Shown here: positions 17,385 through 24,088 of the stretch, in pieces
Position numbering within the stretch: the first letter of the stretch is position 1
How the letters are laid out: each line of letters starts with the position of its first letter
NCBI GenBank assembly: GCA_965228485.1
Contig: OZ245819.1
Coordinates: 30,001 to 62,000, forward strand
Source of the DNA: Candidatus Saccharimonadota bacterium
GTDB lineage: Bacteria > Patescibacteriota > Gracilibacteria > UBA4473
Direction of reading: 5' to 3'
Length of the DNA: 32,000 nt
The notes under the pieces: model-generated
Database searches by the model: none
What the model was told of the DNA's origin: nothing
Seen by the model: the letters and a program-made list of their open reading frames with translations, nothing else
Translations under genes and position numbers: made by a program

Positions 17385-19996
17385 TGCTAAAACGAATAAT
17401 CGCTTTCAGTCTGATTTTAGGTTTGATGGTGCCTTTGGGCGTACATTATACCGATATAAATTTTGGTGTGACGATGGTTCAGGCCAAAGAAAAAACCAAA
17501 AAGGTAAAAGGGGTAAAAATAAAAGAAACAAAGGTAAGACAAATGAATACCAAGCAGTTGGAAAAACTGCTCAATCGAATCGATAAAGCTCGAGAAAAAG
17601 GAGATGGAGCAAAAGTAAAAATGCTCAAACAGAAGTACAAAAACAAGAAAAAAAATCTTAAAGAAAAGTGGAAAGAAAGTCTCAAAAATCCTGATCTTTC
17701 TAAAGCTGAAAAGAAACTCCTTCGTGAAGAATTCAAAGCTCAAAAAACAGCGCTAAAAAGTCTGAATGAAGAACTCAAAAAAGACTTGGATAGAAAGCTG
17801 TCTCAGTCCATAACTCCACAAGAATTGGAATCAATTGAGTTTGTAGAACCCAATTTTTTGTATGAGTTGCAGGGTTTTACCGATCCGCGTTATGCTGAAC
17901 AATGGGGATTACAGTCTGTTGGAGTTTCAGGTATTCCAAAAGAGCAAAACAATACCGAGGATACCATTGTCGTTGCGGTCGTAGATAGTGGAGTGAATTT
18001 TTCACATCCAGATTTAGGCGCTAACAAATGGGTAAGTAGTACGTGTGTGGATGCGAATAATGAACCTATCCCAGGTGGATGTCTGAATGGAGGATATGAC
18101 TTTGTTGATAACGACAATGATCCTTTTCCAACCGATAATATTAATCATGGTTCAGCCGTAGCTTCTGTGATTGGGGCAGAAACTAACAATGGAGAAGGAA
18201 TGGCAAGTGTGGGACAAAATGATGTACAGATTATGTCGGTACGAGCGTGTTGTACGGCAGAAGGATTTTTTGAGGTTTCGGAAATCGAAGAAGGAATCCG
18301 TTTCGCGGTTAATAATGGAGCCCAGGTGATTAATGCGAGTTTTGGAGGACCGACGTATTCTCAGCAGTTAGAGGATGCAATTCAGTACGCAGAGGATAAT
18401 GGAGTACTCGTGATTGCGGCGGCGGGGAATTATGCAACGGACAATGATACTTCGCCAATGTATCCAGCAAACCTCAATCAAACACATACGAATGTCTTGA
18501 GTGTTGGGTCTACTACAAGTTGGGATCATCTAGCGTATTTTTCAAATTTTGGAGTGAACACCGTAGATATTGCGGCCCCGGGGCAAGATGTGCTGGTGGC
18601 GGTGCCGACGCATTATTATCAGGCGTTAAGTGGGACGAGTTTTTCCGCGCCTTTGGTATCAGGAGTTGTGGCACAGATGATGCAGGGGAGTGATTGGGAT
18701 TATCTGAATATCAAGAATTTACTCCTTCAATCGGTGCAAACTTTACCCAGTCTCGATGGAAAAGTTTCAGGGAGTAAAGTCCTCAGATTTGATATCCCAG
18801 AAATAGAAACACCTCCTACAGAAGAAGAGGAAAATAACACTGGGAATGGAAACACAGGAGAAGGAACAGGCGAAGAAACGACTGATCCAGAACCAGAAAT
18901 TACTGATGAAGAGGAAGCGCAGATTGATGAAGAACTGACTGAAGAAGAGCAAATACAGGTAAAAAACACCTGTAAAGGACTTCCGAAAAAAGAAAAAAAG
19001 AAGTGTAAGAAACAAAAGAAGTTGCAGAAATTTTGTAGTAAGGAAAAAAACTACGAGACCAAAAAATGTATCAAATTTCGAGGAGAAACCACTACGGCAA
19101 TTTTGCCAAATAGTGTGATAGGAGATTTGATCTTTCATCACGAAGATCATCTGACGGGGAGTAATGTGGATACAGATAGTAGTGGTAACGTGGTTCAACT
19201 TTTGGATTACTTTCCATATGGGGGAACACGTGTTGATGAACATAGTAATGATTACCAGAACGATTATAAATTCACTGGGAAGGAAAGAGATGAAGAAACA
19301 AATTTAGACTACTATGAGTCTCGATATTATAACTCAGATATTGCGAGATTTATTTCGGTTGATCCTTGGGAAGGAGACATGAATGATCCACAATCGTTTA
19401 ACAAATATAGTTACGTTTTTAACAATCCTATTAAGTATGTTGATCCGACAGGAGAGGAAGCTGAAATTTTTATACGTTTAGAAGGACCATTGAAAGCAAA
19501 GAGTTTTAATCTAAGTGAACAATTTGGTCATTCTATGATAAGGGTTAATGATAGATTTTATGGATTTGCTCCAACAAGAAGTGATCCAGTTACAGATGTT
19601 CAAGATTATAGCAGCTCACAATTTGGAAGAGTTTACAATGGACAAAATTGGAATTCCATGGTGTTAAATACAACAGAGCAACAAGATCAAAAAATAGTTA
19701 ATTATTATGAGGAATTAAAAAATTCTGGACAAGAATCTATAACAGGCGAGTATAGATTTCGTACAAATAATTGTACACAGATTTGTCATGGGGCATTGCA
19801 AGAAGCTGGAGTATTACCTAGAATGCCAAGAGCATTTGCTCCTAGAGTCTTGTACGAAGGACTCAAAGCACTTAGTACAGTAGAAACCCTCTTGGAAACA
19901 GTAGATTCAGACTATGACAGATTGACAACTAAATTTAATAGTAAAAATATTGATTCAGATCAAGATGATTCTAGTGATGACGATTCTGATGATTAG
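17384..19996 (+). CDS. composite protein: signal-anchor, Lys-rich coiled coil, subtilisin-like S8 peptidase, acidic and Lys/Cys linkers, RHS C-terminal core, C-terminal toxin tip (CT1)
   Basis: ATG overlaps the previous stop (TAATG). S8 motifs: D201 (VAVVDSGV), H255 (NHGSAVAS), N348 (AAAGN), S417 (SGTSFSAP), nt ~17876-18778. RHS core aa 574-691 (LIFHHEDHLTGSNV...YKFTGKERDEETNLDYYESRYYNSDIARFISVDPWEG...NNPIKYVDPTGE, nt 19103-19456). CT1 is aa 692-870. Confidence 0.85.
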   Translation: MLKRIIAFSLILGLMVPLGVHYTDINFGVTMVQAKEKTKKVKGVKIKETKVRQMNTKQLEKLLNRIDKAREKGDGAKVKMLKQKYKNKKKNLKEKWKESLKNPDLSKAEKKLLREEFKAQKTALKSLNEELKKDLDRKLSQSITPQELESIEFVEPNFLYELQGFTDPRYAEQWGLQSVGVSGIPKEQNNTEDTIVVAVVDSGVNFSHPDLGANKWVSSTCVDANNEPIPGGCLNGGYDFVDNDNDPFPTDNINHGSAVASVIGAETNNGEGMASVGQNDVQIMSVRACCTAEGFFEVSEIEEGIRFAVNNGAQVINASFGGPTYSQQLEDAIQYAEDNGVLVIAAAGNYATDNDTSPMYPANLNQTHTNVLSVGSTTSWDHLAYFSNFGVNTVDIAAPGQDVLVAVPTHYYQALSGTSFSAPLVSGVVAQMMQGSDWDYLNIKNLLLQSVQTLPSLDGKVSGSKVLRFDIPEIETPPTEEEENNTGNGNTGEGTGEETTDPEPEITDEEEAQIDEELTEEEQIQVKNTCKGLPKKEKKKCKKQKKLQKFCSKEKNYETKKCIKFRGETTTAILPNSVIGDLIFHHEDHLTGSNVDTDSSGNVVQLLDYFPYGGTRVDEHSNDYQNDYKFTGKERDEETNLDYYESRYYNSDIARFISVDPWEGDMNDPQSFNKYSYVFNNPIKYVDPTGEEAEIFIRLEGPLKAKSFNLSEQFGHSMIRVNDRFYGFAPTRSDPVTDVQDYSSSQFGRVYNGQNWNSMVLNTTEQQDQKIVNYYEELKNSGQESITGEYRFRTNNCTQICHGALQEAGVLPRMPRAFAPRVLYEGLKALSTVETLLETVDSDYDRLTTKFNSKNIDSDQDDSSDDDSDD
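19043..19407 (+). repeat. RHS core-tip repeat, copy 1 (inside the S8/RHS-core ORF)
   Basis: About 365 nt nearly identical to 20528-20891. Roughly 8 differences lie in the first ~110 nt, then 257 nt are perfectly identical (19151-19407 = 20635-20891). Confidence 0.9.
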
Positions 19997-20004
19997 ATAA
20001 TAAA

Positions 20005-20517
20005 ATGTTTATATTTGATTTCTTTTTTTCAATTTTAGATATATCTCTTCTTTCATTAGTTTTATATTTTTTAGTATTATTATCTCCTTTTTTAGTTGGG
20101 TGTTTTTTGTTCATTTATAATAAAAAATTATTCATTATATTTTTATTAATCTGTCTTACTAGCGGTGGTTATGTTCACTACTTAAAAAATAGTCTTAACT
20201 ATAATTTGAATTTAATCAGCAACGGAAATCGAGACCAAAGGGCAAACGCTTTTGAATATCTGAGAAAAAATAAACCACCAGAGTCAATTCCTGTTCTAAT
20301 AGAAAATATTAGTAGTTCTGACAGAGTATCTGAACCTAAAGGTGGAGTGGCAATGCACTGTGCCGTTACTTGGGCATTAGAAGACATTACCAATCAAAAA
20401 TTGGGTAGGACTTGCACAGTAGAGGATTTAGCAGAGAGAGAGAGAATTGTTGACCAATGGGAGAATTGGTATGAAAATGATTATCCTGAATGGGTTAGAA
20501 ATTTGAGTATAGAATAG
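20005..20517 (+). CDS. putative immunity protein for CT1: N-terminal 2-TM region plus HEAT-like repeat
   Basis: Starts 9 nt after the toxin ORF stop and is very AT-rich. TM helices (LLSLVLYFLVLLSPFLVGCFLFI, LFIIFLLICLTSGGYV), then a HEAT-like segment RANAFEYLRKNKPPESIPVLIENISSSDRV...HCAVTWALEDI. Immunity role inferred from position. Confidence 0.55.
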   Translation: MFIFDFFFSILDISLLSLVLYFLVLLSPFLVGCFLFIYNKKLFIIFLLICLTSGGYVHYLKNSLNYNLNLISNGNRDQRANAFEYLRKNKPPESIPVLIENISSSDRVSEPKGGVAMHCAVTWALEDITNQKLGRTCTVEDLAERERIVDQWENWYENDYPEWVRNLSIE

Positions 20518-20527
20518 GTTTGTATAT

Positions 20528-20891
20528 GAAAAAACTACGAGACAAAAAAATGTATCAAGTTTCGAGGAGAAACCACCACGGCAATTTTGCCAAATAGTGT
20601 GATCGGGGACTTGATCTTTCATCACGAAGATCACCTGACGGGGAGTAATGTGGATACAGATAGTAGTGGTAACGTGGTTCAACTTTTGGATTACTTTCCA
20701 TATGGGGGAACACGTGTTGATGAACATAGTAATGATTACCAGAACGATTATAAATTCACTGGGAAGGAAAGAGATGAAGAAACAAATTTAGACTACTATG
20801 AGTCTCGATATTATAACTCAGATATTGCGAGATTTATTTCGGTTGATCCTTGGGAAGGAGACATGAATGATCCACAATCGTTTAACAAATA
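20528..20891 (+). repeat. RHS core-tip repeat, copy 2 (5' part of orphan cassette 1)
   Basis: See copy 1. Begins 10 nt after the stop of the immunity gene. Confidence 0.9.
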
Positions 20892-23960: not shown

Positions 23961-23977
23961 TTCTTTTAAAGCTTTAT

Positions 23978-24056
23978 CCAACTTTTGGATTACTTTCCTT
24001 ATGGGGATACCTGAATAGATACGTATAGTAATGGGTTGTCAGAACGATTATGAATA
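23978..24056 (+). pseudogene. degenerate fourth copy of the RHS core fragment
   Basis: ccaacttttggattactttccttatggggatacctgaatagat...cagaacgattatgaa aligns to the LLDYFPYGGTRVDE...QNDYK region of copies 1-3 but carries in-frame stops (LLDYFPYGDT*). Confidence 0.6.
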
Positions 24057-24063
24057 GACAAAG

Positions 24064-24088
24064 AAACGTCCAATTTTGGACGTTTTTT
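24064..24088 (+). terminator. rho-independent terminator closing the RHS locus
   Basis: 9-bp stem aaacgtcca (24064-24072) / tggacgttt (24077-24085), 4-nt loop attt, then a T-run. Confidence 0.6.

Follow-up and report, generated by a model that had tools for sequence, protein, structure and literature searches.

The DNA considered here is a window of 32,000 nucleotides (nt) from contig OZ245819.1 (positions 30,001 to 62,000; assembly GCA_965228485.1, Candidatus Saccharimonadota bacterium), whose plus strand carries an RHS gene cluster extending from window position 12264 to an intrinsic terminator at 24061–24088 (Table 1). Near its end lies a toxin gene in which an RHS core leads into a C-terminal tip (CT1), and downstream of this main gene the core recurs: a repeat search, MAFFT alignment and tblastn all recovered the RHS core (TIGR03696) four times in one orientation, as had been claimed in a first-pass annotation made from the sequence alone. 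Copies 1 to 3 score 75.2, 78.1 and 77.0 bits against TIGR03696 (Rhs_assc_core), for which the curated NCBIfam cut-off is 32.5 bits. Copy 1 sits within the open reading frame (ORF) of the main toxin gene, as previously annotated, with its TIGR03696 match at residues 609–690. Copy 2 (20529–20941) matches copy 1 (19045–19457) at 98% of positions across the initial 300 nt and at 92% across the final 271; identity to copy 1 is 85% for copy 3 (22687–22957), and copy 4 (23954–24056) shares 78% identity with copy 3's 5' junction (repeat D4, against 22671–22737). In the MAFFT alignment, approximately 25 nt of upstream flank is common to copies 3 and 4 and is not found in copies 1 and 2. The last homologous stretch in copies 1 to 3 is a PxxxxDPxG(E/N) motif, immediately after which the sequence diverges; it reads NNPIKYVDPTGE in the main gene, NNPVKYVDPSGN in orphan 2 and NNPIKYVDPTGE in orphan 3 (the cassettes built on copies 2 and 3), with E or N, not L, as the final residue.

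The two orphans are open frames with no conventional beginning. Orphan 2 opens at 20530, directly after a TGA (20527–20529), and its first in-frame ATG comes at 20863, preceded only by a TTG at 20587. The frame of orphan 3 begins at 22687, behind a TAA (22684–22686); this orphan is truncated at its 5' end, retains the entire TIGR03696 domain and has its first ATG (22879) inside the core. On both points the first-pass annotation was correct. Neither orphan has a signal peptide, an S8 domain or a shell region, and their frames run uninterrupted through core and tip for 324 codons in orphan 2 and 277 codons in orphan 3, each with an intact partner gene. The linker behind the S8 domain survives as 14 codons in orphan 2, which was therefore derived from an S8-type gene. 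Copy 4 is decayed, as had been recognised, by an in-frame TGA and a 1-nt indel, after which it passes straight into the terminator; its tblastn match covers 23976–24032, and its start lies at 23954, some 24 nt earlier than previously placed. Between the two orphans, a 52-nt relic (22243–22294) shares 87% identity with the 3' end of the Imm53 gene (21852–21903), and this relic and copy 4 together show that two or more additional cassettes have suffered partial deletion. The relic had escaped the first-pass annotation, as had a 98-amino-acid (aa) ORF and a DUF2283 gene in the same interval. Two other readings of these frames were considered and rejected: read-through from the preceding gene (I1) into orphan 2, which lies in the same frame, is ruled out by two stops (TAG at 20515–20517 and the TGA at 20527–20529), and a recoded genetic code in which UGA specifies glycine, considered since relatives include Patescibacteria, is incompatible with TGA ending 3 of the 27 long ORFs and with none of them being fragmented.

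Each of the first three core copies runs into a different tip (CT1, CT2 and CT3; CT1 and CT3 are unrelated by BLAST and may share a fold), and each tip is closely followed by a small gene (I1, I2 and I3, respectively). The distance from tip stop to partner gene is 8 nt for I1 and 9 nt for I2, and the I3 ATG shares 1 nt with the CT3 stop, in agreement with the tight coupling proposed previously. The four hydrophobic segments of I3 likewise agree with its earlier description as a protein with four transmembrane segments (four-TM). The hairpin at 24061–24088, with its 12-bp stem, is the only strong plus-strand terminator-like site in 12000–24400, and upholds the view that the array ends there; as the immunity genes have their own ATGs and no plus-strand terminator separates them from the main gene, they are probably co-transcribed with the main gene. 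The tips and immunity segments had been thought visibly richer in A+T than the cores. This is the case for the immunity genes (G+C fraction 0.304 for I1, 0.349 for I2 and 0.256 for I3) and for the additional genes and spacer (0.255–0.296), whereas the tips (0.335–0.362) are hardly below the cores (0.36–0.38); the window mean is 0.389.

The middle cassette is the one whose parts can be named. CT2 (20941–21504) matches Ntox24 at 27.6 bits against a Pfam cut-off of 24, and the gene adjacent to it, I2, matches Imm53 at 85.9 bits against a gathering score of 25, substantiating the earlier suggestion of an Imm53-like partner. Imm53 is listed as a partner of Ntox24, itself predicted to be a metal-independent ribonuclease (RNase) (Zhang et al. 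2012, PMC3482391), and CT2 is probably an RNase, following that prediction. The arrangement has close parallels in the polymorphic toxin systems with standalone cassettes and polyimmunity loci described in the same study (PMC3482391), where the same Ntox24 tip is borne on an RHS scaffold with Imm53, and where extra small genes and immunity relics likewise lie between cassettes.

The evidence that these copies have exchanged sequence lies in the distribution of differences among the cores (given here in copy 1 coordinates). Between the main gene and orphan 2 there are 7 differences in 19045–19150, all of them synonymous, none in the 257 nt of 19151–19407, and 21 in the 50 nt of 19408–19457 (42%). 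Between the main gene and orphan 3 the gradient is reversed, with 29 of 99 positions differing in 19196–19294, 9 of 105 in 19295–19399, and a single position of 58 in 19400–19457. The main core is a chimera that resembles orphan 2 in its 5' part and orphan 3 over the final 50 nt, with breakpoints at two places: 19407/19408 and exactly the junction of core and tip. With 35 of the repeat's 413 positions differing overall, uniform divergence cannot explain an internal identical tract of 257 nt, and the mosaic pattern is direct evidence of past recombination, as a displaced-tip model requires. The differences are mainly synonymous (18 codons to 4 and 22 codons to 8), and in the cores the ratio of nonsynonymous to synonymous substitution rates (dN/dS) takes values of 0.11 and 0.09, while a comparison of CT3 with its homolog in metagenome locus L081 gives 0.21; the prevalence of synonymous changes and the low core dN/dS indicate that the copies diverged as working coding sequence.

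Table 1. Features of the RHS gene cluster and its downstream array, in window coordinates.
Feature	Position	Strand	Evidence and remarks
Pair of small paralogous proteins of secreted appearance, 189 and 199 aa	12264–12833, 12843–13442	+	Direct repeat D3
RHS shell gene, 1309 aa	13455–17384	+	Signal peptide, SpvB (3.9e-20) and RHS/YD repeats (RHS_repeat 1.3e-26)
Main toxin gene, 870 aa	17384–19996	+	Signal-like N-terminus, Lys-rich region, S8 subtilase, linker, core, CT1
Core copy 1	19043–19456	+	Within main toxin gene; ends in NNPIKYVDPTGE
CT1, 179-aa tip	19457–19996	+	Candidate permuted NlpC/P60-type toxin (His25 ... Asn-Asn-Cys106)
I1, putative CT1 immunity protein, 170 aa	20005–20517	+	Hydrophobic N-terminal third and soluble domain (hydropathy)
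Orphan 2: 14 S8-core linker codons, full core (20530–20940), CT2 (20941–21504)	20530–21504	+	No ATG start
I2, Imm53 immunity protein, 128 aa	21514–21900	+	Pfam Imm53, 1.7e-24
ORF, 98 aa, no family found	21905–22201	+	Lies between the Imm53 3' end and its second copy
Remnant 3' terminus of a second Imm53-like gene	22243–22294	+	Repeat D6; reads ...KKFVDSRGKNWREK and stop
DUF2283 small protein, 76 aa	22438–22668	+	Pfam DUF2283, 2e-8
Orphan 3: core from ...QLLDYFPYG (22687–22956) and CT3 (22957–23520)	22687–23520	+	First ATG at 22879
I3, putative CT3 immunity protein, 146 aa	23520–23960	+	Four hydrophobic segments (hydropathy)
Core remnant, copy 4	23954–24056	+	Repeat search, alignment, tblastn
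Intrinsic terminator	24061–24088	+ (scored on minus too)	12-pair stem, 4-nt loop, T run

We consider it highly probable that the locus is a classical rhs 'main plus orphan' array, with two intact spare cassettes, a decayed copy and further debris. In this arrangement, the expressed toxin gene carries CT1 and has its putative immunity gene, I1, next to it, followed by two spare cassettes: one in which a core fragment is joined to an Ntox24 tip and Imm53, and another in which it is joined to CT3 and a four-TM protein. In their present form the orphan tips would be neither made nor exported, and I2 and I3, transcribed together with the main gene, would guard the cell against relatives deploying those tips. 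RecA-type recombination across the core repeats of 270–413 nt could then join the main gene to CT2 or CT3 and thereby swap the toxin that is deployed. There is experimental precedent for the last step in Salmonella, where an orphan without initiation and export signals is expressed and delivered once it has recombined with the main rhs gene (PMC3967940). As in established rhs orphans, the fragments here are 5'-truncated and share one orientation, end at a PxxxxDPxG motif, carry a distinct tip with a coupled immunity gene, lack an export region and probably a translation start, and retain homology with the main gene that is long enough to recombine. The differences are those of context: the main gene is the second half of a split RHS, with a signal-like N-terminus and an S8 domain before the core, in place of a PAAR/VgrG-linked effector of type VI secretion (T6SS), no T6SS gene occurs in the window, the established motif, PxxxxDPxGL, ends here in E or N, and the host is a bacterium of low G+C content. 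A related process is known from Vibrio cholerae, in which T6SS effector/immunity modules are displaced sequentially (PMC5361080); there too a new module is inserted, the old immunity gene is pushed downstream and relics are left behind, whereas the displaced units at the present locus also keep their toxin tip and the repeated sequence is the RHS core.

Relatives elsewhere provide further evidence for the array interpretation. CT3-like tips are found both on a full-length RHS protein and on start-less fragments: P0123 is a 1657-aa protein with SpvB, TcdB_midN and RHS regions and a CT3-like tip, with a 140-aa four-TM gene 4 nt downstream, and P0122 (L081) and P0124 (L166) are start-less fragments in which an in-frame stop precedes a remnant of the Cys-rich S8-core linker, a core and a CT3-like tip. 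In L166, this tip is followed by a 158-aa four-TM gene homologous to the partner in locus L165 (34% identity, E 4e-18), and I3 resembles the four-TM partners of L165 and L166 in size and topology. The pairing of CT1 with I1 recurs in locus L163. A core-alignment scan of metagenome contigs returned 80 related loci, of which 24 hold 2–7 core copies, 1.1–5.7 kb apart and mostly 1.3–3.5 kb; as this is too close for full rhs genes, orphan arrays are common. The displaced-tip architecture named in the first-pass annotation is present in all its sequence-level features, but its description there as enterobacterial was too narrow.

Several observations weigh against this interpretation. Copies 1 to 3 each hold an in-frame ATG (19379, 20863 and 22879) after AAGGAG or GAAGGGG, and orphan 2 additionally has the TTG at 20587. 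Shine-Dalgarno sites are rarely used in the genome; together with the internal ATGs this leaves the orphans only putatively start-less, and the missing recognisable start is weak evidence of silence. Tenacibaculum xiamenense (L001) and a Candidatus Peribacteria metagenome-assembled genome (MAG; L003), the closest S8-type loci, have no second core copy, and the array is thus not conserved in the family. The homology of I3 with four-TM partners elsewhere is not significant, since 77 of 2000 shuffles score equally, and the fold assignments for CT1 and CT3 discussed below draw on sub-threshold matches.

The first two of these points bear on an alternative in which each orphan would be expressed in its present form, from promoters and start codons within the core, and would act as an internal module resembling a toxin–antitoxin system; this would be compatible with a role as a reservoir. 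In Salmonella, internal promoters and non-ATG starts give toxic products from both main and orphan rhs tips (PMC7043789). At the present locus, each core contains a promoter-like TTTAGA-16 nt-TATTAT (19303, 20787 and 22803) about 50 nt before the conserved ATG with its upstream AAGGAG or GAAGGGG, and the public annotation (P0121) starts orphan 3 at the ATG at 22879. Moreover, an ATG at 20526 is one A-deletion, in an A6 run at 20529–20534, from being in frame with the entire orphan 2. Loss from the A6 run would give an ORF beginning MKNYETKKC and spanning orphan 2, and the main copy has A7 at this place; the near-frame ATG could reflect chance, a rearrangement junction or a slippage-prone switch. 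The promoter matches are, however, without statistical weight, as a sigma-70 scan yielded 32 sites against 40.8 in shuffled sequence. The motifs in question fall in coding-constrained sequence (encoding NLDYYESRYY and WEGDM), the methionine is replaced by L, I or F in related cores, and the rarity of Shine-Dalgarno usage in the genome counts against reading the purine-rich stretches as ribosome-binding sites. Within the window itself, Shine-Dalgarno sequences precede few genes, the regions upstream of genes are A/T-rich and TGA serves as a stop; with a source contig of 1.295 Mb, this fits an uncultivated bacterium with a small genome. On balance, we regard internal expression as unlikely, though far from negligible.

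It could also be argued that the downstream copies are inert debris of rearrangement on its way to being lost, with tips and small genes that no longer function. The clear decay of copy 4, the relic of an Imm53 3' end and the existence of related S8-type loci without orphans would all sit comfortably with such a history, but the long open frames, the intact partner genes and the predominance of synonymous substitutions would not, and the 257-nt tract shared unchanged with the main gene speaks for an exchange in the recent past, leaving this explanation improbable. That the tandem array might be an artefact of assembly, in which the tips of co-existing strains were joined through their shared core, deserves consideration: the source is very probably uncultivated, its proteins occur once in the public collection, on a single contig, and repeats of 270–413 nt can mislead short-read assemblers. 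Such an error would nevertheless have had to produce copies truncated at different 5' points, with unique junctions at 20518–20529, 22669–22686 and 23954, and divergence patterns that differ between copies in a way that collapsed strain alleles would not give. Comparable arrays are, furthermore, present in many independent assemblies, and we judge an artefact to be exceedingly improbable.

The other two tips, CT1 and CT3, match no toxin family at threshold, either in the published catalogue (PMC3482391) or in current Pfam. A word-index search with CT1 alone returned no match, parent protein included, and searches of PDB sequences with CT1, CT3 and the CT3 profile yielded nothing useful. CT1 shares H25 and NNC106 with its one homolog, the tip of P0005 (L163), and the gene after that tip shows 27% identity with I1 (pairwise E 7e-6). 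For CT3, a full HMMER search returned 38 relatives, among which H34 and N125 are invariant and the residue after N125 is Cys in about half and Ser in the rest, including CT3 itself (Ser126). Sub-threshold matches suggest a common theme: Pfam Lnb_N/DUF4105 is matched by CT1 (E 2e-3) and the P0005 tip (E 5e-4) at 18–20 bits against 22.2, Peptidase_C97 reaches 19.7 bits against a cut-off of 29.2, and one CT3 relative has a weak PPPDE match. AlphaFold2 models have a predicted local distance difference test (pLDDT) score of 89.6 for CT3, a confident model, and of 58 for CT1, which was built from two sequences; the CT1 model being poor, its Foldseek matches are only suggestive. The Foldseek comparison, a check that the first-pass annotation had proposed for the tips, was run for CT1 and CT3 and gave no significant fold match (E 0.35–0.6). 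The weak top matches of CT1, 3kw0 and 8a2g, point to a YiiX-like permuted NlpC/P60 protein of B. cereus (3kw0) and to a 2A protein; those of CT3 are other picornavirus 2A proteins of the H-box/NC type, from Aichivirus and kobuvirus, and a DUF4105 protein. An hhalign comparison of CT1 with the CT3 family aligned the two at the N-C helix with a probability of 31%. Neither CT1 nor CT3 has a sequence match to the permuted NlpC/P60 family at curated threshold.

Nonetheless, CT1 and CT3 are probably lipid-targeting permuted NlpC/P60 (DUF4105/LRAT-like) enzymes that would be neutralised at the membrane, a proposal that draws on the weak matches, which point the same way, on sequence motifs and on the nature of the partner proteins. 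A precedent is Tox-Act1, a T6SS phospholipase with a membrane-associated immunity protein, which has a permuted NlpC/P60 fold and forms a sister clade of DUF4105/Lnb (PMC12994826). CT1 and CT3 share with Tox-Act1, TseH, DUF4105/Lnb, LRAT and YiiX a His that precedes a putative nucleophile, probably at a helix start, in an N-C/S motif, and their partners, like the Tox-Act1 immunity protein, are membrane proteins. They differ in that the Cys is replaced by Ser in CT3 and in approximately half of its family, and in being borne on RHS proteins and not delivered as small T6SS cargo. The membrane partners I1 and I3 fit the Tox-Act1 picture; lipid targeting is a best guess and not an assignment. A His...Cys pattern is also present in the tip of metagenome locus L083 (10340–10957; IGHSGVAI ... 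GDQCTSRTSESLAKAGL), so that tips of a permuted papain-like type may occur often within this RHS subfamily. The fuller proposal, that the array serves a split two-gene RHS and that CT1 and CT3 found two unannotated lipid-targeting families with a switch between Cys and Ser nucleophiles and integral membrane proteins as their immunity partners, is a tentative one, which we hold to be possible and somewhat doubtful as a whole.

The genes upstream of the array show how unusual the main gene is. The shell protein stops at ...IFAGNTKIATHKTDMTQ, where its contiguous homolog in L083 goes on into the core, and the TIGR03696 core domain is not matched in the shell gene. The main toxin gene (Peptidase_S8, 1.3e-45) begins with an ATG that overlaps the shell stop by 1 nt. 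The RHS is in effect split, with the shell ending at '...IFAGNTKIATH' and a second gene bringing a signal-like N-terminus, an S8 protease and then the core. Proteins with this S8-core layout form a small family of about 900 aa each, identical in layout and differing in their tips. T. xiamenense (L001, 6036–12745) has the same two-gene form after the same pair of small genes, in the Peribacteria MAG (L003, 6191–12754) shell, S8, core and tip form one ORF of 2187 aa, and in L083 (5954–10957) the shell is contiguous with the core and the S8 module is missing. In L001, L003 and L083, homologs of the small paralogous proteins are likewise encoded upstream of the shell gene. These proteins combine a signal peptide with a 'DLNGDGL(L/I)D' motif and, at the C-terminus, 'YYGDCADI', and match no Pfam family; the pair is also seen at L001 4596–5999, L083 4701–5880 and L164 879–2160. 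They may be accessory factors of this RHS subfamily.

Other observations concern the remainder of the window. DUF2283 proteins usually have DUF4258 toxins as their partners; the DUF2283 gene here stands solitary between cassettes 2 and 3, where the array is richest in A+T (G+C fraction 0.255), with no DUF4258 partner beside it in the array. On the minus strand, positions 617–4351 encode a 1244-aa protein with an N-terminal HNH_2 domain and the PIN domain of the TPR-GreAB-C-PIN system (Pfam E 2e-6, just above threshold); this may be a defence or conflict gene, with no apparent relation to the rhs cluster. Searches of the window found neither Rfam families nor tRNAs.

It is worth noting that the main-plus-orphan architecture is already established for rhs loci, and that this locus adds another example: both the arrays of rhs orphans and the way in which recombination activates them are known, and the layout of the array adds little to that knowledge in itself. 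What the locus contributes lies elsewhere. Its recombination breakpoints are unusually legible in the sequence, and its tips include representatives of two putative toxin families that lack database annotation, one (CT1) with two known members and the other (CT3) with 38, which are concrete candidates for toxicity and lipidomics assays. It also shows the cassette logic at work beyond the enterobacterial cases linked to T6SS, in a subfamily of RHS that an S8 protease module divides.

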